IMG/VR virus record: IMGVR_UViG_3300045988_143938
From: a virus
Reading direction: 5' to 3' (one strand)
Length of the DNA: 64,000 bases
The translations under genes and the position numbers were made by a program. Numbering within the stretch: the first letter of the stretch is position 1; each line of letters opens with the position of its first letter. The notes below the pieces were generated by a model. That model saw only the letters and a program-made list of their open reading frames with translations. It was not told where the DNA came from and ran no database searches. Positions 5,545 through 63,693 of the stretch are shown piece by piece.

Positions 5545-5628
5545 ATAATACACCTCCTTTCCGTTTTGCCTACTAACCTGTATTAGCAGACTTCAAGCTG
5601 CACCCTGTCAAGTGCAACTAAAAAAGCC

Positions 5629-5636
5629 CAAAGTTA
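5629..5636 (-). promoter_or_regulatory. Bacteroides-type -7 box (TAacTTTG on the minus strand)
   Basis: Matches the TAnnTTTG consensus, about 85 nt upstream of the 5544 start. Confidence 0.35.
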
Positions 5637-5911
5637 CAGGACATTGGGCTTAAATGTCTTTTCTCAATGAGAACGGACAAGAAAGGTGACGAATGACAGT
5701 TCGTCGGATTGGAGGTATTATACTCCTGTTAAAACGCGGTACAAATATAGGTTTTAGCCTACAAGTAAGGAACTTTATTAACGATTTTAATAGTCAAATT
5801 AACACATGAGTAAACTCTACAAAGCAACCATTTTCGGCAAACCGTTCATGCTTGGATGGTTCAGTCATGCGGACAAATGGTATCATAAAATTGGAATAAT
5901 ATATTGAGACA

Positions 5912-6310
5912 ATGAGAGCAACCGAAAAGAAACTAAGAGACAGACACGCCCGTCTGCCTGAACAATACAAGAAGGTAGACACGACAGTCAACGGGGATGC
6001 GGAAAACCTAATAGAGGAGCGCAAACAGTTTGAAAAGAACTTGGTTCCTCTGCGCCTTAGCAATACTACCGTTATATACGTAACAAAAGATAAGCAAAAC
6101 GAAGCGTATGCAGCAGTGGCGCGTAAACGAATGGGAATAGCCGAACCGAGGAAAGTATTCGTTGATCCTCTCTCACAGGAGAACATTACAAAGATGTACA
6201 AGGAGGACGGCATATCTCCCCGTAGAATAGCCGAAATATTGAATGTAAGCGTCAGGACGGTGTATCTAAGATTAGCCAAATACGGGCTTACAAAAGTGAA
6301 ATGCAGATAA
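5912..6310 (+). CDS. HTH DNA-binding protein (132 aa)
   Basis: The C-terminal ISPRRIAEILNVSVRTVYLRLAKYGL is a classic helix-turn-helix. The overlapping minus ORF 5794..6279 has an implausible composition. Confidence 0.65.
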   Translation: MRATEKKLRDRHARLPEQYKKVDTTVNGDAENLIEERKQFEKNLVPLRLSNTTVIYVTKDKQNEAYAAVARKRMGIAEPRKVFVDPLSQENITKMYKEDGISPRRIAEILNVSVRTVYLRLAKYGLTKVKCR

Positions 6311-6325
6311 TTAAAACTTGTAATT

Positions 6326-6835
6326 ATGAAAGATATTAAAAGAAAATACAGTTTCTCTGATATAGAGTTTAAGCCTTACTTTACAGAGGAAGAGGTAAAT
6401 TTTATCAAAAAGATGAAATTGATGAAAGATGTTGATAAGTACATGCAGGGAGTGGTTGAGTTTGAGAATGGTTATGGCGTCAGTGTACTTTTAGGACAGC
6501 TGTTTTATTCAGACGGAAAAGACACATACGAGGTGGCCGTTACCTATGACGGCCATATAATCAACCGAGATAACGAGCAGTGGGTAGAATGCTTTTTGGA
6601 CCGCTATGAAGTTGAGAAGCTGATGAACAATGTTGCCGGGCTTAACCCTATTGTCGTTGATTCGTTCGACAAAGGCGATTACTTGGTGTATAATTTTGAT
6701 AAATATCATACATATATAGTCAGTCCGGGAAGAGAAAACATTAGATTGTTTGGTTCTTTTTACGAAAGAAGAAAAGCCACCTATGAAGAAAGAGAGAAGA
6801 TATTCGAGAGATTGAGAAAATCATTAATTGTTTAA
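6326..6835 (+). CDS. hypothetical protein (169 aa)
   Basis: Clean ORF 15 nt after the previous stop. Confidence 0.6.
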   Translation: MKDIKRKYSFSDIEFKPYFTEEEVNFIKKMKLMKDVDKYMQGVVEFENGYGVSVLLGQLFYSDGKDTYEVAVTYDGHIINRDNEQWVECFLDRYEVEKLMNNVAGLNPIVVDSFDKGDYLVYNFDKYHTYIVSPGRENIRLFGSFYERRKATYEEREKIFERLRKSLIV

Positions 6836-40415: not shown

Positions 40416-40482
40416 TCACCTATTTTCTATAAAAACAACATTATAGACATATTTTTATGGGTAAAATTTAGAAAATAGATGA
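40416..40482. promoter_or_regulatory. motif locus 3: TCACCTATTTTCTA (40416-29) and GGGTAAAATTTAGAAAATAGATGA (40459-82), inverted pair in the divergent late promoter region
   Basis: Each copy lies next to a -7 box, at 40408-15 (minus) and 40490-97 (plus). Confidence 0.65.
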
Positions 40483-40489
40483 AAAATCG

Positions 40490-40497
40490 TATATTTG
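40490..40497 (+). promoter_or_regulatory. -7 box TATATTTG
   Basis: Exact match 7 nt after the 14-mer and 78 nt before the terL ATG. Confidence 0.5.
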
Positions 40498-40527
40498 CAC
40501 TATATATTACTCATAGAGCTGTGAATC

Positions 40528-40574
40528 AAGCCGGAGTATGCAAAATCATATTGCATGCGACGGCTTATTTTTTT
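40528..40574 (+). terminator. leader terminator C immediately before the terL start codon
   Basis: AAGCCG 40528-33 pairs with CGGCTT 40561-66, with an inner ATGCA/TGCAT stem, then A + T7 (40568-74). The ATG is at 40575. Confidence 0.55.
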
Positions 40575-43265
40575 ATGGAATACGACGGAATTGTACATAC
40601 AAAAAATGGAGAGGGCGTATTTACTTATGCGCACATGGAAAAGCTGCGTGAATATGGAAATCCGCTTAATATAATCGCCCAAAAAGGATGTCAAGAAAAG
40701 TTCCTTGCGTCTCCGGCAGATATTACTATATTTGGAGGAAACCGTGGTGGCGGAAAGGCGCTGATATTCAATGAATTAGTGTGTACTCCGTTCGGATTTA
40801 GAAAAATCCAAGACATTAAAGCCGGCGACATAATCACTGGCCTTGACGGAGGAATGCAAAGGGTTGTTTACAACTCCTATCAGGGATTTAAAGAGTGTGT
40901 AAGACTTAAATTCGTTGACGGCTCTTATGCTGACTGCTGCATAGATCACTTATGGAATATCAAGCAATCTAACCATTGTTCAAAGAAAAGGGCTTTATAT
41001 AACCTCCCCTTAGAGGATGAATGGCGGGTGTGGACTACTCAAATGATTATAGACCACATGGAAAAGCAGAAGGGGAAGAAGCAGCCGCGCCATTTATCTG
41101 TTCCGTTGTGCAAGCCAGTTCGATTCACCAAAGGGAAATACTTCAAGCCTAAATTCAGTCCGTATCTGATTGGTGCGCTCATCGGGGACGGATGTATTGC
41201 CGATAGTGTAATCAGTAAAAACTGCTGTTATTTATTTAATCCTGACGAGGAAGTCATTGGCGAGTTCAAGAAATCAGTAGGGTATTCTTCTTGCGAGTTT
41301 GAGAAAGGCTGCTACCGCATGCGCATCAACGACAAAGAGCTTATCGCAGAGATTCAGAAATTGAATATAACAGGGCGTGCGGCAGATAAACACGTTCCTG
41401 ACATGTATTTATATGGGTCGCTGGAGGAAAGATGGGCGCTTGTTCAGGGCTTAATGGATACCGACGGAACTATTGATGAAAGAGGGCACCTGTCTTATAC
41501 TACAATAAGCAAACAGCTTGCGGAAGATGTAAAATTCCTTATCAACAGTTTGGGAGGATTGGCGACGATTGGCAGAGGCACCGCGGGGTATAGAAATAGC
41601 AATGGAAAATTTATCCAATGTAATGACGCATACACTCTTTATATAAGAATCCCGGATGCCGAAAGGATGTTTCGCGTAAAAAGGAAAAAGGAAAGATGCA
41701 AACCTTATAATGGCGGAATAAGCATCAATGCGAGAAGAATTATAGGCTACGATATGATAGGGAAGAAGGAGTGTTGCTGTATTGCAGTAACCAATCCGGA
41801 TAGTTTGTTTCTGACAAGGGATTTTATTGTCACCCATAATTCTTGGGCCTTGCTAATGGAGGTCTTGAAAGATATAAATAACCCGAATTTTGCTTCTGTA
41901 ATCCTGAGAAACGAAAAAGAGGACTTGAGTAATATAGTAAACAAGTCTTATGAACTTTTCTCTCAATACGGAAAGTACAACCGCTCTATCTCGGACATGA
42001 CTTGGAACTTCTATAACGGAGGTTTTTTAAAGTTTTCCTATTATGCGGATTCTTACGAAGACTTCGTAAAGCGTTTTCAGGGAAAAGAGTTTGCCTTTAT
42101 CGGTATAGACGAAATCACTCACTCTGATTACCTGAAGTTCAAATACCTTATTACCAACAACCGTAATGCCTACGGTATAAGAAACCGTTTTTATGGCACA
42201 TGTAACCCTGACCCGGATAGCTGGGTACGTAAATTCATAGACTGGTGGATTGATGAAAACGGTAACCCTATTCCGGAGCGAGACGGGGTAATACGCTATT
42301 GCTTCATGGATGGCGACCGACCGGAAGATATTTACTGGGGGGATTCCGTAGACGAAGTTTATAACCAATGCAGGCATATCATAGATCCGTTGCTTACGCC
42401 GGGTCTTATCAGTAAGGGTTACGACAAGTCGGCATTCGTGAAGACAGTCACATTCATAAAGGGAAAGCTTGAAGAGAACGTTGCTCTTATATCTTCCGAC
42501 CCTAATTATTTAGCCAACCTGGCCCAGCAGGACGAAGAATCTCGCGCAAGGGACTTGGAAGGGAACTGGAACTTTAAAGCTGCCGGGGATGATATTATCA
42601 AGATGGAACACATGGAGCGCTTCTTTAAAAATACCGCCCAATACGGAGACGAGAAGCGTAGGGTATCATGCGATATTGCATACGAGGGAGGAGACAACCT
42701 TGTCTTGTGGCTGTGGATCGGGAACCATATCGAAGATGTATATGTGAGTAGGGATAATTCCAAGCGGACGGAAGAGTGTGTTGCCCATAAACTTAGAGAG
42801 TGGGGCGTGCTGGAAAAGGATTTTGTTTTTGACTTAAACGGCCCCGGCCAGGATTTTAAAGGGAAATTCCCCGATGCGGTCAGGTTTAATAATATGGCTG
42901 CTCCAATACCCGCGACAAAAGCGGATGAGAAATCAATCAAGTATGTGTACTCCTCTTTAAAATCACAGTGTGCGGATATTCTTGTAAAAAAGATAAAGAA
43001 CGAGGAGATATCCATAAATCCCGATTTGTTATCGCGCAAATTCTCCGGTAACGGATATTCCGGAGTAACCCTTTATAATATTCTTATGAAAGAGAGAAAG
43101 GCTATTCGGGACGCGGAAACAGACAAAGGGTTTGCCTTGATTAAAAAGGAAACTATGAAAAAATACGTCGGGCACTCTCCTGACTTTATAGAAGCGATGA
43201 TTTACAGACAAATTTTTGATATAAAAAAACATAACACAAAACCAAAAGGATTATGGAGATTATAA
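40575..43265 (+). CDS. terL: terminase large subunit, intein-containing precursor
   Basis: Walker A GGNRGGGK|...|S is interrupted. Walker B is FAFIGIDEITH. GTCNPD is present, followed by a nuclease-half-sized C-terminus. The start is set at MEYDG because the track start 40479 overlaps the promoter motif. Confidence 0.9.
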   Translation: MEYDGIVHTKNGEGVFTYAHMEKLREYGNPLNIIAQKGCQEKFLASPADITIFGGNRGGGKALIFNELVCTPFGFRKIQDIKAGDIITGLDGGMQRVVYNSYQGFKECVRLKFVDGSYADCCIDHLWNIKQSNHCSKKRALYNLPLEDEWRVWTTQMIIDHMEKQKGKKQPRHLSVPLCKPVRFTKGKYFKPKFSPYLIGALIGDGCIADSVISKNCCYLFNPDEEVIGEFKKSVGYSSCEFEKGCYRMRINDKELIAEIQKLNITGRAADKHVPDMYLYGSLEERWALVQGLMDTDGTIDERGHLSYTTISKQLAEDVKFLINSLGGLATIGRGTAGYRNSNGKFIQCNDAYTLYIRIPDAERMFRVKRKKERCKPYNGGISINARRIIGYDMIGKKECCCIAVTNPDSLFLTRDFIVTHNSWALLMEVLKDINNPNFASVILRNEKEDLSNIVNKSYELFSQYGKYNRSISDMTWNFYNGGFLKFSYYADSYEDFVKRFQGKEFAFIGIDEITHSDYLKFKYLITNNRNAYGIRNRFYGTCNPDPDSWVRKFIDWWIDENGNPIPERDGVIRYCFMDGDRPEDIYWGDSVDEVYNQCRHIIDPLLTPGLISKGYDKSAFVKTVTFIKGKLEENVALISSDPNYLANLAQQDEESRARDLEGNWNFKAAGDDIIKMEHMERFFKNTAQYGDEKRRVSCDIAYEGGDNLVLWLWIGNHIEDVYVSRDNSKRTEECVAHKLREWGVLEKDFVFDLNGPGQDFKGKFPDAVRFNNMAAPIPATKADEKSIKYVYSSLKSQCADILVKKIKNEEISINPDLLSRKFSGNGYSGVTLYNILMKERKAIRDAETDKGFALIKKETMKKYVGHSPDFIEAMIYRQIFDIKKHNTKPKGLWRL
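40758..41840 (+). mobile_element. intein (361 aa) with LAGLIDADG homing-endonuclease domain, class-3-like
   Basis: Block A: ALIFNELVCTPFGFRKIQDI. Block B: GSYADCCIDHLW. LAGLIDADG motifs: LIGALIGDGCI and LVQGLMDTDGTI. Block F: ECCCIAV. Block G: FIVTHN, followed by Ser +1. Confidence 0.8.
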
Positions 43266-50890: not shown

Positions 50891-51031
50891 ATGTATTTAG
50901 GCTTTATACTTTGGGCGATAATTTTAGTTGTGATCGTGTGGAATACTAACCCGGCACTAGTTATTATATCCGTAGTGATAGGGGTTGTGTTTGCGATTGC
51001 AAAAACAACAGATAATAAACCAAAAGAATGA
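50891..51031 (+). CDS. mini 2-TM protein (46 aa)
   Basis: MYLGFILWAIILVVIVWNTNPALVIISVVIGVVFAIAKTTDNKPKE. GGAGGAATAAACT lies upstream. Confidence 0.4.
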   Translation: MYLGFILWAIILVVIVWNTNPALVIISVVIGVVFAIAKTTDNKPKE

Positions 51032-51032
51032 C

Positions 51033-51875
51033 ATGGAAACATTGAAGGACGTTTTTTTGAAAAAATACCCGCAATACGGAAAGGTGCTGCGGGTATATGA
51101 AGAGGTTAACGAAACGGAGTGCACCTTCGAGAGTATTACAAAACCAAGGTTGTACAACTTCGTTCAGGCTCTTAATGACAGGCTGGCAACAAACAGTGCT
51201 AAAACCTATTGCGCTATGTTTAAATCGGTTCTTAACCTGTACAGCGATATGTATTCTTTCCCGAAAGGCTTTGAAGCTATATTAACCCTGAAGAAGGACG
51301 CAACGCAAAGTACATGGTTAACGGATGAAGAAATTAAAAAACTACTCTCATACGATCCGGCTAATGATACAGAACGGACAGTGAAAAACTGTTTTCTTCT
51401 CGGTTGTCTGACAGGTGCAAGACATTCGGACTACGTATGTTTTACAGAGGACAATATAATAGACGGACGACTGGTCTATATTTCCCAAAAAACAAAAACG
51501 AAAGCGGAGATTCCAGCGGCTCCGGCTGTGTTACGGATATTAGAGGAAAACAAAAAGTACAACCTTAGCCAGCGGAAACTGTCTGATGTGACATTTAATG
51601 ATACGATAAGAAGTATATGCCGGAAGTGTGGAATAAACCAACGAATAAAACTGTATCAGGCGGGCGAATATGCAACAGGGGAAAAGTGGGAGTTTATTTC
51701 CTCGCATTCAGCGCGGAAGTCTTGCGCAACCAACTTATATTTAAGGGGAGCGGATCTGTATTCTATCAGCCGGATGTTAGGACACTCCAGTGTAACCATG
51801 ACGGAAACGTATATTTGTTGCGGGCTGCGTGAATTGTCAGATAAGATAATAGGATATTTCAACGGGTTTAAATAA
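51033..51875 (+). CDS. tyrosine recombinase (short, 280 aa)
   Basis: The catalytic set is visible: GARHSD (Arg), SHSARKSCAT (His-x-x-Arg) and LGHSSVTMTETY (His...Tyr). Confidence 0.8.
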   Translation: METLKDVFLKKYPQYGKVLRVYEEVNETECTFESITKPRLYNFVQALNDRLATNSAKTYCAMFKSVLNLYSDMYSFPKGFEAILTLKKDATQSTWLTDEEIKKLLSYDPANDTERTVKNCFLLGCLTGARHSDYVCFTEDNIIDGRLVYISQKTKTKAEIPAAPAVLRILEENKKYNLSQRKLSDVTFNDTIRSICRKCGINQRIKLYQAGEYATGEKWEFISSHSARKSCATNLYLRGADLYSISRMLGHSSVTMTETYICCGLRELSDKIIGYFNGFK

Positions 51876-52471: not shown

Positions 52472-53605
52472 TTACAATTTACTGTCCATCTTTTCAAATT
52501 CTTCTTGTACGGACTTGTTTAGCACTTTGGCGTAGATCTGTGTAGTTTTTATATCCGTATGTCCCATCATTTTTGCAAGGTTTTCAATCGAAACTCCCAT
52601 ATTCAATGCCATAACCGCAAAACTATGCCGGGCCATGTGCGAATGTAGGTTTTGTTTTATCCTCGCGAGCTCCTGAACGACTTTCAGTCTTAAATTATAC
52701 TGATAGTTGCTTATTACGGGCAGTTTGAAATCGTATTTTTGCAGAATTTCCATTGCGGGCTTAAGAAGCATCAGGAAATACTCTTCTTCCGTTTTTACTC
52801 TTACGTCTCTTATAAAGAATTTGTTCCCTTTCTTGATTACACCGCTAAAATCAAAGTTGAACAAATCTGCATAAGACAAACCCGTAAAACATTGGAATAC
52901 GAACAAGTCTCTAACCCGTTCAATGCTCTCGGATGCCGTTTTTAAGCCTTGTATTTGCTTTATCTGTTCTAAGGTGAGGTATTTTATACCTTCGCTCTTT
53001 CCGCGCTCAAATTTGAGCTTATTATACGGGTTGTCTTTCAGCAAATCATATTTGATGGCTTCGTTTATATATCTTTTCAGGCGCTTATGATAACCATGTA
53101 TTGTCGTCTGCTTGTTGTACTTCCCATGAAGGAAATTGTCATAGTGCATTATGTTAGCCGTAGTAACGTCCGTAAAGTAAACGATCCGACCGAACTCTTT
53201 CAGGGATGTTATTAAGGAGGCATGCGTATTTAACGTTCCTTGCCTGAGGTCGGTTCTTTCGCCCACTCTCCGTTTTATAAAATCTATAAAGCTTTCTTTT
53301 GTTTGGGAATACTTTAAAAAGTGTTCCAGCTTATCAAAACTGAAAGGTTCTTTGTTTTTTACCAACCCGTTTATGAACTCGTTGATGTTCCGCATTTGCG
53401 TATCAAGCCTTTCGTTGAGGTCTAAAGATTGAACGGTATTCTTAACCTTTGTTTTTTCGCTCCATTGGTCGGAATACAACCGAACGCCTGTACTTAACCA
53501 TTTTCTTTTCCGTTCAAACAAAATTTCTATTTGAACGGTTCCTTTCGTTGTCTTGCTTGCCGTATGTTTACGGTCAAAAACAAACCTTAATACTGGATAC
53601 TTCAT
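52472..53605 (-). CDS. int: site-specific integrase (Bacteroides-type tyrosine recombinase, 377 aa)
   Basis: The N-terminal MKYPVLRFVFDRKHTASKTTKGTVQIEILF arm-binding style is typical of Bacteroidetes integrases. C-terminus: HMARHSFAVMALNMGVSIENLAKMMGHTDIKTTQIYAKV. Confidence 0.9.
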   Translation of the reverse strand: MKYPVLRFVFDRKHTASKTTKGTVQIEILFERKRKWLSTGVRLYSDQWSEKTKVKNTVQSLDLNERLDTQMRNINEFINGLVKNKEPFSFDKLEHFLKYSQTKESFIDFIKRRVGERTDLRQGTLNTHASLITSLKEFGRIVYFTDVTTANIMHYDNFLHGKYNKQTTIHGYHKRLKRYINEAIKYDLLKDNPYNKLKFERGKSEGIKYLTLEQIKQIQGLKTASESIERVRDLFVFQCFTGLSYADLFNFDFSGVIKKGNKFFIRDVRVKTEEEYFLMLLKPAMEILQKYDFKLPVISNYQYNLRLKVVQELARIKQNLHSHMARHSFAVMALNMGVSIENLAKMMGHTDIKTTQIYAKVLNKSVQEEFEKMDSKL

Positions 53606-54852: not shown

Positions 54853-54878
54853 AAACCGCGTTGTGTGAATAACGCTCC

Positions 54879-54991
54879 TTCCTCTTAGCTCAACGGTTAG
54901 AGCATCGCTAAGGTTATTTGTTCGTAAGGGTTTAGCGTTTCCGGTCTGTTCCGGTTAGCGATTGTTGCACGTTCGATTCGTGCAGAGGAAG
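54879..54991 (+). ncRNA. tRNA-like element with expanded anticodon arm
   Basis: Acceptor stem: TTCCTCT 54879-85 / AGAGGAA 54984-90. D arm: GCTC-AACGGTTA-GAGC. T arm: GCACG-TTCGATT-CGTGC. 5-nt variable loop. In place of a 17-nt anticodon stem-loop there is an 8-bp helix, ATCGCTAA 54904-11 / TTAGCGAT 54955-62, enclosing 43 nt. Confidence 0.5.
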
Positions 54992-54999
54992 CAAGATAC

Positions 55000-55372
55000 A
55001 CCGTTCTTTGACGTATTGAATGTGAAACAAAGTTTGAATATCTGATATTCGGATTTGTTTCAATATAACTAAGGATTACGTATAGCGGAAACGCCGAAAC
55101 TACGTATAGGCTTGGTTATCGTGATTGTTTCTCGCACCGAAATGTCCTACGGTAGAGAAGTATGCGGTTTGGGCGCCCGTATCGCGAGAAACAACAGGTC
55201 ATAAAGACAATATAAGCGTCCGATACAGTCTTAAATCGGTATAAAGTATGCGGTGGTAATGAAAGGCGGCCGTACACGCTTATTATATATATTCTCGTGG
55301 CTCACCATAAGGCGAGTGGTAAGGCTTAACATCGGAACGCTCACGAGAACAATTACTAATCACTAATTTAAA
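55000..55372 (+). ncRNA. ORF-free, hairpin-dense region (candidate structured RNA)
   Basis: No ORF of 60 aa or more in any frame. Nested stems read by eye, with approximate positions: TGAAACAAA/TTTGTTTCA with inner GAATATC/GATATTC (about 55021-63); TTGTTTCTCGC/GCGAGAAACAA (11 bp, about 55125-95); AAGCGT/ACGCTT; TTCTCGTG/CACGAGAA (about 55292-350). Confidence 0.4.
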
Positions 55373-55384
55373 ATCAAAATTATT

Positions 55385-62820: not shown

Positions 62821-63231
62821 ATGCTGTACGAATTTAAGCTTAAAGTAAACAAGGTTAACGAGAAAGGCGATGAAAAAGAAGTCACCGAGCAATTCATCAC
62901 TGATGTAGATTTGTTCTGTCAGGCAGAACAGAAAGGCCTTGAAATGTACGCTTCTAACAATATGGAGTGTGACGTTTTCGCAATCAGCCGTAGCAAGATA
63001 CGTGAGATTGTCAATGAGAAGCAGGATGATGAGTTCTTTTACAAGATAACCCTTGTTGAAGTTTTTGTTGACGACAACGGGAAAGAAAAAGAGAATAAAT
63101 ATTACGTTCTCATAGCGGCAAAGAATATGGATGATGCCAACAAAAAGGCGGCGGAATACATGAAGCAGGGACTTCAAGATATGAAGCTGGACGCTATTGC
63201 CAAAACAAAGATTTTGGACTTAGTAAAATAA
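62821..63231 (+). CDS. hypothetical protein (136 aa)
   Basis: Clean ORF. The antisense ORF 62788..63177 is judged spurious. Confidence 0.6.
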   Translation: MLYEFKLKVNKVNEKGDEKEVTEQFITDVDLFCQAEQKGLEMYASNNMECDVFAISRSKIREIVNEKQDDEFFYKITLVEVFVDDNGKEKENKYYVLIAAKNMDDANKKAAEYMKQGLQDMKLDAIAKTKILDLVK

Positions 63232-63369
63232 ACCAAAAGCCCTCTACTGATGTAGAAGTTCTGTGAAAGGTTCAGGTTAAGATTTAATCAGCTAACAAAT
63301 TAACTATCCCGGTGTGGTTTGACCGCCTATCCGGGAACAAGGGCCTGTGAAGATTGGGCAGGTGAATAT

Positions 63370-63513
63370 GGAGAAGTGGTGTAATTGGTAGGCACGCCGT
63401 GGGTAGCGCGGTGAGTGTAATAGAAATAGGAAGTTGGTGCTTTTCCACCTTAGCAGTCATGCTATAGTAACAAGCCGAATAAACTCGTCCCGGTTCGAGC
63501 CCGGGCTTCTCCT
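63370..63513 (+). ncRNA. second tRNA-like element (acceptor/D/T arms, about 90-nt non-canonical middle)
   Basis: Acceptor stem: GGAGAAG 63370-76 / CTTCTCC 63506-12. D arm: GTGT-AATTGGTAG-GCAC. T arm: CCCGG-TTCGAGC-CCGGG. No canonical anticodon stem-loop follows the D arm. It lies at the 3' end of a 297-nt ORF-free gap. Confidence 0.45.
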
Positions 63514-63528
63514 CTAAATATATTTACC

Positions 63529-63693
63529 ATGAGACTTACATTAACTAAAACCGAAATTGCAATTGTTCAGAAACTTGTGATAGACCGAAAGCGTGACATT
63601 CATAATGCAGGAGGTGACAGCAAGCAGTATGAGATGCTAAGTAAGCTAAATAAAAAGATTGCAAGGCAGGCAAAGAAATTTTATAAAACATGA
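63529..63693 (+). CDS. hypothetical small protein (54 aa)
   Basis: Hand-translated as MRLTLTKTEIAIVQKLVIDRKRDIHNAGGDSKQYEMLSKLNKKIARQAKKFYKT. ATGA overlap with the next gene. Confidence 0.4.
   Translation: MRLTLTKTEIAIVQKLVIDRKRDIHNAGGDSKQYEMLSKLNKKIARQAKKFYKT

Follow-up and report, generated by a model that had tools for sequence, protein, structure and literature searches.

An element at positions 63370–63512 of IMG/VR virus record IMGVR_UViG_3300045988_143938 raises the question of what an RNA might do that has the acceptor, D and T arms of a tRNA around a centre from which the anticodon arm is missing. The window, that is the whole stretch of 64,000 nucleotides (nt) that was analysed, is by its gene content a temperate, siphovirus-like phage of Bacteroidales. 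The element lies in a block (63232–63528) between a 136-amino-acid (aa) gene and a 54-aa open reading frame (ORF), both on the plus strand. A sequence-only reading of this DNA had described the block as free of ORFs, which holds for the plus strand; one 58-aa ORF, probably spurious, was found inside it on the minus strand. We report that the element belongs, as far as sequence comparison can tell, to a large and apparently undescribed family of tRNA look-alikes in temperate phages of gut Bacteroidales. Our proposal, held with as much doubt as confidence, is that it is the gene for a stable non-decoding RNA that mimics the upper half of the host tRNA-Leu and carries a swappable module as its lower half.

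The scaffold read from the letters alone, namely the acceptor stem GGAGAAG/CTTCTCC, a D arm of the Leu type, a canonical T arm and 92 nt between them, was recovered in full (Table 1). The 92 nt extend from position 26 to the T stem (63397–63488), and the arms carry the U8 (63377), A14, G18G19 and T54-Psi55-C56 positions conserved in canonical tRNAs, as judged from the sequence, the cloverleaf drawn by ARAGORN -i and the covariation in the family. Of the nucleotides that set Leu identity by E. coli rules (A73, A15:U48, the placement of G18G19, U8:A14), the window copy has U8, A14, A15, G18G19 and U48, and its position 73 is a U. The flank of a related lineage reads A CTAAATAT and that of the window T CTAAATAT; since the homologous flank is otherwise the same, the U73 of the window is a point change. 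Exactly two tRNA-like genes were called in the window by ARAGORN -i200, at 54879–54992 and 63370–63514, which are also the only two places with a TTCGA-type T arm, and none was called in intron mode on 40 dinucleotide-preserving shuffles of the whole window. The tRNA-like architecture is beyond chance. The relaxed mode of ARAGORN, as had been suggested, was required to see it: the default mode found no tRNA gene across the whole window, and Rfam 15 at gathering thresholds reported nothing on the element.

With the upstream flank as query, 13 contigs were retrieved from IMG/VR, and these carried either of two wholly different sequences between near-identical flanks: type A, the form found in the window, and type B, which is about 190 nt long and also present in GenBank MT836332. 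When each half of the element was scanned for separately, the 3' one comprising T arm and acceptor strand and the 5' one acceptor strand and D arm, about 100 more phage contigs were recovered, and the comparative set finally consisted of the window and 220 fetched loci (221 sequences, 1.69 Mb). A scan of GTDB, with one genome per species, revealed prophage copies in Bacteroides neonati, B. graminisolvens, Bacteroides sp., Parabacteroides spp. and a Chryseobacterium, as well as the true tRNA-Leu(GAG) gene of many Bacteroidaceae, whose identity ARAGORN confirmed; the phage collection, looked through for annotated relatives, gave only two fragments, both unannotated. The first 26 nt of the phage elements, GGAGAAGTGGCGGAATTGGTAGACGC, are exactly those of the Bacteroidaceae tRNA-Leu(GAG), and the 3' end common to the family is a canonical T arm followed by CTTCTCC. 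Between these common ends at least 20 mutually unrelated types of centre were found, 43–129 nt long, in the position where the host tRNA-Leu has a normal anticodon arm and a variable arm (33 nt). A single 11-nt match, GGTTGTAATAC, between two of the types was the only motif common to different cores. The 143-nt type A element is nearly unchanged in more than 36 phage contigs, where it is combined with three types of upstream and two types of downstream flank in all combinations, and for this reason it is best described as a conserved cassette that recombines. Over the same loci the protein encoded by the neighbouring DUF4494 gene varies (84–99% identity) while type A remains nearly invariant. 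From these comparisons, the element is accordingly neither a decayed tRNA nor the product of a recent insertion: the earlier argument against random decay gains from its retention in dozens of phages with several flanks and from a family with a covarying T stem, the counter-scenario of a canonical tRNA gene hit by an insertion in one genome is contradicted by the more than 36 contigs that carry it, and the class of expanded tRNA-like RNAs then proposed has become a family with the same tRNA-Leu-like ends, next to a second, likewise conserved scaffold at 54879.

The recommended search of related phages for covarying homologs was productive. For the covariation count, the two scaffold halves of 25 distinct variants were joined and their pairs counted. 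Every cell of the T stem was paired (100%), both sides changed in four of the five pairs of this stem (C-G, A-U, G-C, U-A), its covariation score was reached by none of 500 column shuffles, and shifting the partner by one to three columns lowered the pairing to about 50%. Pair 7:66 of the acceptor stem also covaries in the family (G-C, A-U, G.U), a more distant lineage with a type B acceptor shows a change from A3-U70 to G3-C70, and the D stem of type A differs from the family and host consensus GCGG..ACGC by the compensatory change of C11-G24 to U11-A24. A T stands directly before the T stem (U48, the partner of A15) in 28 of 32 core types, and positions 73–74 are A-C in 28 of 33. With these nucleotides retained around cores that have nothing in common, it follows that the class II tRNA tertiary core is being preserved. 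Taken as sequence evidence, these patterns indicate that selection acts at the level of the RNA.

They also bear on the idea that the locus is a feature of the DNA or mere debris, either an attachment (att) or recombination site derived from tRNA-Leu or a pseudogene decaying at a recombination hotspot. Such an origin would suit a temperate phage with two tyrosine recombinases, the more so as the 3' ends of tRNA genes are classical att sites, and conservation does stop exactly where the acceptor stem ends on its 3' side, and again within a leader hairpin, with shuffled flanks on either side. However, the compensatory changes, which affect the leader hairpins as well as the T, D and acceptor stems, point to RNA pairing and not to DNA sequence, about 10 kb separate the element from the integrase genes, the neighbouring genes are less conserved than the element, and the T arm and 3' acceptor strand of the element are unlike those of the host tRNA-Leu (CCCGG..CTTCTCC versus GTGAG..CTTCTTC). 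We regard the probability of this explanation as close to negligible, and its most specific form, an attP matching the host tRNA-Leu, was ruled out because the 3' half differs from the host gene.

The centre of the window copy has an arm of its own in the anticodon-arm position, the hairpin CCGUG/CGCGG, with a loop of only 5 nt, which makes the display of an anticodon impossible there; the absence of a normal anticodon arm, claimed before, was confirmed in that no allele with a normal arm was found. Among more than 36 type A copies, three or four haplotypes with six single-nucleotide polymorphisms (SNPs) in total were distinguished. One of these (63400 T>C) converts U.G to C-G in the CCGTG/CGCGG hairpin and another (63454 C>T) converts C-G to U.G in the TAGCA/TGCTA hairpin, so that two of the small hairpins described earlier are each backed by a SNP that keeps the pairing. 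The third, a GGAAG/TTTCC stem said to enclose a 7-nt UUGGUGC loop, fared worse: the loop has 8 nt (UUGGUGCU), and the natural SNPs 63442 T>A and 63444 T>C would disrupt the stem. Both fall in the loop of an alternative hairpin, formed by GGUG (63436–39) and CACC (63446–49). A metagenome scan for divergent type A copies returned near-identical sequences only, and the covariation support for the type A core is therefore thin. Compensatory changes within types were found in other cores, between the type D variants D1 and D2 (TTTATTTACA/TGTAAATAA versus ..GCA/TGC..) and between loci L017 and L095.

Could the element nevertheless be a genuine tRNA, for Leu or another amino acid, that contains an intron or is enlarged in its anticodon or variable region and is spliced or decodes directly, for example in recoding or frameshifting? 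ARAGORN -i labels it tRNA-Cys(GCA) and gives it a 49-nt intron, several relatives exceed the gathering threshold of the Rfam tRNA model (35–42 bits for some), which puts the insert into the anticodon arm, relatives occur in arrays with canonical tRNA-Phe genes, and one member (L101) has a CUGAGAG loop-like segment between CUAAA and UUUAG. The called anticodon and intron position shift, however, between alleles that differ by 2–8 nt. With one representative per core type, ARAGORN -i called the window element Cys and its 2-SNP variant Ala, two type D variants Cys and Gly, and two 95-nt variants Gln and Ile; a Leu anticodon appeared in three of 25 calls, about the level of chance. This change between near-identical alleles makes an intron-bearing decoding tRNA unlikely, and one mature tRNA with a constant anticodon and stem could not be reconstructed across alleles. 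The ARAGORN model of the window copy places the intron at an unusual position, leaves a 27-nt variable loop unpaired and is at odds with the local hairpins; its anticodon stem would be broken by SNP 63400 T>C and its anticodon altered by 63454 C>T, both of which the local hairpins tolerate. On the strength of the SNPs and the inconsistency from allele to allele, the Cys(GCA) intron model was rejected. The element also lacks the 5-bp anticodon stem with 7-nt loop and the length of 72–93 nt of a canonical tRNA, measuring 143 nt. The 1.69 Mb of related loci contained neither an allele free of the insert nor a canonical tRNA-Leu bearing the phage T arm or scaffold, canonical tRNA-Leu calls being confined to host loci and a 291-kb jumbo-phage contig. 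Group I introns would need far more room than the inserts offer, the Rfam scans detected neither a ribozyme nor an intron family, bacteria to our knowledge lack the bulge-helix-bulge (BHB) splicing endonuclease, and the ORFs of the window read normally in genetic code 11. A decoding tRNA is very unlikely on these grounds, and the alternative of a tRNA with an unusual insertion, left open by the sequence-only reading, was not supported: no insert-less allele, no conserved anticodon arm and an anticodon that flips at a difference of 2 nt. As a separate observation, the L101 element, from a Bacteroides sp. prophage, begins GGAGAAGTGGCGGAATTGGTAGACGCTCTAAACTGAGAGGG, and its CUGAGAG segment resembles the anticodon loop of tRNA-Leu(GAG), with a 23-nt insertion on the 3' side; it could be an evolutionary intermediate from a real tRNA-Leu to the non-decoding forms, or a coincidence.

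Upstream of the element, the 138 nt that had been described as hairpin-containing and non-coding form part of a conserved structured leader. Three hairpins, H1 to H3, follow the DUF4494 gene in about 100 loci, each with a pair that changes on both sides (Table 1). H1 occurs in CTCTAC..GTAGAG-type and CTCTGC..GCAGAG-type variants and is kept in about 100 loci, the loop of H2 bears a UGAAA T-loop-like motif, and H3 has an invariant outer stem and a covarying inner stem (GGY/RCC; AGC/GCU in L035). The 3' trailer of H3, RCAAG, resembles the trailers of tRNA-like genes: GCAAG follows the element at 54879 and the tRNA-like genes of L035. In most loci a long covarying hairpin with a GUGA (in some GCGA) GNRA tetraloop lies between the leader and the tRNA-like gene. 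In the window this segment is a recombination junction, at which a type-B-like upstream flank meets the type A element; the type A and type B alignments part exactly after CCTGTGAAG.

No plus-strand terminator was found near the element or before the 54-aa ORF, which begins 16 nt past the 3' end of the element, and the RNA would therefore have to be excised from a polycistronic transcript. This arrangement, and the conservation of the leader and trailer motifs (GNRA hairpin, RCAAG), would also be expected if the element were cis-acting tRNA punctuation that only directs RNase P and RNase Z cleavage and so uncouples the DUF4494 message from the 54-aa ORF. In other phages, however, 70–170 nt and an intrinsic terminator follow the element instead of an ORF, and punctuation leaves the large, structured, type-specific cores and the multi-gene arrays unexplained; we consider it highly improbable.

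The element is placed in the early recombination module (exonuclease, DUF4494, VRR-NUC), and a DUF4494 gene precedes it in 36 loci with ten centre types. More distant relatives have VRR_NUC immediately after DUF4494 and no intervening RNA, and in another distant DUF4494 locus the gap again holds a tRNA-like gene; the RNA therefore fills a variable slot and is not tied to DUF4494. The AlphaFold model of the DUF4494 protein (predicted local distance difference test score, pLDDT, 91) has a duplicated beta-beta-alpha-beta-beta fold, Foldseek gave weak matches to ribosomal protein eL20 only (template modelling, TM, score about 0.3), and a sequence search gave no solved homologue. A role of DUF4494 as the dedicated RNA-binding partner was ruled out by these weak matches, the lack of a solved homologue and the directly following VRR_NUC in distant phages, and its linkage is treated here, on gene order, as presumptive synteny within the recombination module. 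DUF4494 recurs in the recombination modules of Bacteroidales phages (RecT or a YqaJ/PDDEXK exonuclease, DUF4494, VRR_NUC; homologues P0001–P0066). Elsewhere the window encodes a tape measure protein, a major capsid protein, an SPP1-type portal, a large terminase, a D5-like primase, a RecE-like exonuclease, two tyrosine recombinases and Ant-type anti-repressors. The two tyrosine-recombinase genes (50985–51875, plus strand; 52472–53605, minus strand) lie within 2.6 kb in opposite orientations. The large terminase ORF (40479–43265, plus strand, 928 aa) contains a LAGLIDADG_3 homing-endonuclease domain (residues ~320–373) upstream of Terminase_6N, which suggests an intein or an inserted endonuclease.

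Table 1. Coordinates of the tRNA-like element, its leader and the neighbouring features in the window.
Feature	Position	Strand	Remarks
Second tRNA-like element	54879–54992		acceptor UUCCUCU/AGAGGAA; D arm GCUC-AACGGUUA-GAGC; T arm GCACG-UUCGAUU-CGUGC
DUF4494 gene, 136 aa	62821–63231	+	Pfam DUF4494 at 1e-21
Leader hairpin H1, UCUAC-UGAU-GUAGA	63243–63256	+	compensating change A-U to G-C
Leader hairpin H2, UCUG-UGAAAGGUU-CAGG	63260–63276	+	one pair C-G to U-A (RNAalifold consensus)
Leader hairpin H3, UCCCGG-UGU-GGU-UUGACC-GCC-UAU-CCGGGA	63307–63336	+	12-layer minihelix, followed by ACAAG (63337–41)
Remnant of GNRA-capped leader hairpin (..CU-GUGA-AG..)	63342–63362	+	partly degraded
tRNA-like gene	63370–63512	+	143 nt; acceptor, D arm and T arm around a 92-nt aberrant core
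Acceptor stem, 5' strand, GGAGAAG	63370–76	+	7 bp with 63506–12
Class II (Leu) type D arm, GTGT-AATTGGTAG-GCAC (RNA GUGU-AAUUGGUAG-GCAC)	63379–95	+	A14, A15, G18G19
Hairpin in anticodon-arm position, CCGUG-GGUAG-CGCGG	63397–63411	+	5-nt loop (63402–06)
Type-A-specific core	63412–63487	+	unrelated to the cores of other family members
Core hairpin GGUG-CUUUUC-CACC	63436–49	+	alternative to the GGAAG/TTTCC stem
Core hairpin UAGCA-GUCA-UGCUA	63451–64	+	
U48 equivalent (63488) and T arm CCCGG-UUCGAGC-CCGGG (63489–505)	63488–63505	+	
Acceptor stem, 3' strand, CUUCUCC (CTTCTCC), and discriminator position 73	63506–63513	+	conservation stops exactly here
54-aa ORF	63529–63693	+	starts 16 nt past the tRNA-like 3' end

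The claim of a second such element in the same phage was borne out as well: the scaffold at 54879 is real, unrelated to that at 63370 and likewise conserved, being kept in 16 further IMG/VR contigs whose flank breaks right after GCAAGATA. This element has about 47 nt between the strands of an intact anticodon stem (UCGCU/AGCGA), a GCGUU-GUGUGAAU-AACGC hairpin before it and GCAAG after it. A UGUGAA hairpin that resembles the GNRA-capped one of the other loci comes before this element. Its ORF-free block (54853–55384) lies about 1.3 kb from the integrase gene.

Among the fetched loci, L035 contains a 1.2-kb stretch (5600–6800) with five aberrant tRNA-like genes: an 82–83-nt element called tRNA-Gln(UUG) with a 16-nt 'anticodon loop', a member with an insert of about 48 nt on an extended anticodon stem, a type D member in which a 10-bp stem, covarying between D1 and D2, holds a nested mini-tRNA complete with D and T arms, a member (6494–6609) whose anticodon stem is capped by a permuted T-arm/D-arm unit of YrlA-like topology (Rfam E=0.065), and a 117-nt Leu-type element. 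Arrays beside a canonical tRNA-Phe were also seen in L015, L016, L049, L052, L057, L067 and L076. Small members include those of L053 and L074, which are 95 nt long and have no more than a stunted anticodon arm, a covarying 3-bp stem (CAG/CUG to CGG/CCG) with a conserved 8-nt loop. Other scaffolds occupy the same slot, namely GGTGGTA..TACCACC (245–270 nt, two cores), GGGGCGT..ACGCCCC (73 nt) and GGGGGTG..CATCTCC. What all these forms share is the body of a tRNA, or at minimum its acceptor/T minihelix, with no anticodon loop that could be used. Two observations lie outside this set of forms. In a distant DUF4494 context, L209 has a tRNA-like gene (1300–1420; acceptor UCCUCUU/AAGAGGA, T arm GUCGG-UUCGACU-CCGAC) with an 8-nt loop on a 4-bp 'anticodon' stem; a long hairpin precedes it, and the sequence after it gave a sub-threshold match to the Bacteroidetes FopS small RNA family (33 bits versus a gathering score of 56). 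In the Bacteroidaceae loci L080, L103, L109 and L115, the host tRNA-Gly(GCC) lies beside tRNA-Leu(GAG), and in several of these genomes it is broken by foreign sequence right after the anticodon region (..CCTTGCCGAAAAAAATAAGG.. / ..CCTTGCCCGTTGATAAAAAGG..), which looks like the integration of a mobile element.

How could an RNA of this kind act? Under our proposal of a non-decoding mimic of tRNA-Leu, the RNA would be transcribed within the early recombination operon behind the structured leader (63232–63362), RNase P would cut at G63370, and a 3' nuclease would trim after position 73 before CCA is added, the tRNA genes of the Bacteroidales considered here having no encoded CCA. Modification of the tRNA type would then give a stable RNA which, with a 92-nt structured module in place of the anticodon and variable arms, would not decode. 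The leucyl-tRNA synthetase (LeuRS) of E. coli recognises A73 and the tertiary core and not the anticodon. Because bacterial LeuRS ignores the anticodon, those relatives that have A73 may be leucylated; the U73 copy of the window is, from its discriminator base, probably a poor LeuRS substrate. Only tentatively do we suggest that the half shaped like a tRNA acts on a host factor able to recognise tRNA bodies, as a translationally inert competitor or decoy. A tRNA-directed defence or toxin enzyme would be one candidate target, and the phage would diversify the lower half while keeping it unable to decode. The notion of a tRNA body without an anticodon agrees with both the small members and those that nest a second tRNA shape. 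By extension, and just as tentatively, temperate Bacteroidales phages may maintain a diversifying arsenal of non-decoding tRNA-Leu-shaped RNAs, some maybe chargeable and some two-headed, that would serve as programmable decoys or inhibitors of host factors recognising tRNA bodies (immune nucleases or toxins directed at tRNAs, for example); put another way, the scaffold may be a platform for structured RNA effectors that are swapped by recombination at the tRNA halves.

Nearly as likely as the decoy role, and hence doubtful to a similar degree, is a tRNA-scaffolded cargo RNA, in which the ends would be a handle for RNase P, RNase Z and CCA processing and for stability, and the core would be the functional part (an aptamer that binds protein, or a regulator of host RNA or protein), with the cassettes setting specificity. 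That the same ends carry entirely different structured cores at one locus favours such a division of labour, as do the compensatory changes by which cores hold their structure (D1/D2, L017/L095), the near invariance of the type A core and the cores of about 200 nt on the GGTGGTA..TACCACC scaffold. There are precedents in the RNase P-processed P1 c4 and P4 CI RNAs, the tRNA-microRNA units of murine gammaherpesvirus 68 (MHV68) and engineered tRNA scaffolds. On the other hand, members of 93–95 nt with a 14-nt arm leave almost no space for cargo, a generic handle would not require the tRNA-Leu-specific D arm, U48 and A73 that are kept, and no Rfam family matches any core. Antisense targets of at least 12 nt beyond chance were absent from the window, and complementarity to the own locus was not in excess among the nine core types tested; P1 c4-like antisense control of nearby phage genes was rejected on the same counts.

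Several results speak against the proposal of a tRNA-Leu mimic itself. Type B, which is allelic to type A, has no D arm, so that full tRNA-Leu mimicry is not obligatory, and position 73, an A in most relatives, is a U in the window copy. In the window the GNRA-capped hairpin of the leader survives as a partly degraded remnant. The compensatory changes within core types and the invariance of type A imply that the cores themselves are constrained, which fits a cargo at least equally well. The Infernal/Rfam check that had been advised came back empty, no family, the tRNA model included, matching 63150–63620 even at E<=10. Lastly, the folding energy of the element is not better than that of shuffled sequences (z = -1.1), and because of this the case is a comparative and not a thermodynamic one.

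Among known systems, YrlA (Rfam RF02553) is similar in being a non-decoding RNA with a tRNA-like module made of a T arm, a D arm and an acceptor-like stem, and that of M. smegmatis is cut by RNase P and receives CCA (PMC4201824). The window element, in contrast, has no YrlA match and no Ro60-binding helix, is not permuted (it has a true 7-bp acceptor stem), and represents a scaffold that is specifically tRNA-Leu-like with a hypervariable lower half; a TROVE domain was not found among ten window ORFs of 296–1653 aa scanned with Pfam. Transfer-messenger RNA (tmRNA) likewise encloses a large non-tRNA domain between an acceptor stem and a T arm, and type B also lacks a D stem. The window element differs from it in having A3-U70 instead of G3.U70, no tag frame with pseudoknots, and 143 nt instead of about 360 nt; no tmRNA match was obtained in the window at E<=10, and L015, L035, L059 and L168 gave only 11–14 bits versus a gathering score of 47. 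Species 1 and 2 RNAs of phage T4 (rnaC, rnaD) are reportedly stable RNAs of about 120–140 nt, co-transcribed with tRNAs, whose tRNA-like ends are matured by the tRNA machinery. T4 is virulent and infects E. coli, its two RNAs have no sequence relation to the window element, and we know of no hypervariable cassette family or tRNA-Leu mimicry for them. The c4 RNAs of P1 and P7 and the CI immunity RNA of P4 are RNase P-processed, cloverleaf-like RNAs of temperate phages, in which variable loops set immunity and which have a link to anti-repressors. The setting is similar in that the window has Ant-like genes; it differs in that no Rfam C4 match was found in the window and that the variation consists of the replacement of whole cores, not of loop changes. 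A tRNA gene interrupted in the anticodon region is also found with the group I intron of cyanobacterial and plastid tRNA-Leu(UAA) and with archaeal BHB introns, from which the inserts described here differ in size (10–100 nt, not >200 nt), in the lack of an intron core, in the loss of the anticodon stem-loop halves and in the absence of an intron-less allele. No description of the family came up in a literature search that covered tRNA-like and tRNA-mimic RNAs of gut phages, Bacteroides and DUF4494. Mimicry of tRNA by non-coding RNAs is thus already known; what appears from the comparisons to be new is the combination of the upper half of a host tRNA-Leu with a hypervariable, cassette-like lower half across temperate Bacteroidales phages.

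For genome annotation, the family means that default tRNA finders and Rfam leave such blocks blank and that intron options assign arbitrary anticodons. Mimicry of tRNAs is familiar from tmRNA, Y RNAs and the tRNA-like structures at viral 3' ends, and the phage-borne design described here, with dozens of modules, sometimes in arrays or nested doubles, is uncatalogued in Rfam 15. It would be a natural counterpart of the tRNA scaffolds that are used for recombinant RNA expression. If these RNAs do mature like tRNAs, and are maybe charged like them, they would constitute a new layer of phage-host conflict or regulation in the dominant gut phylum.

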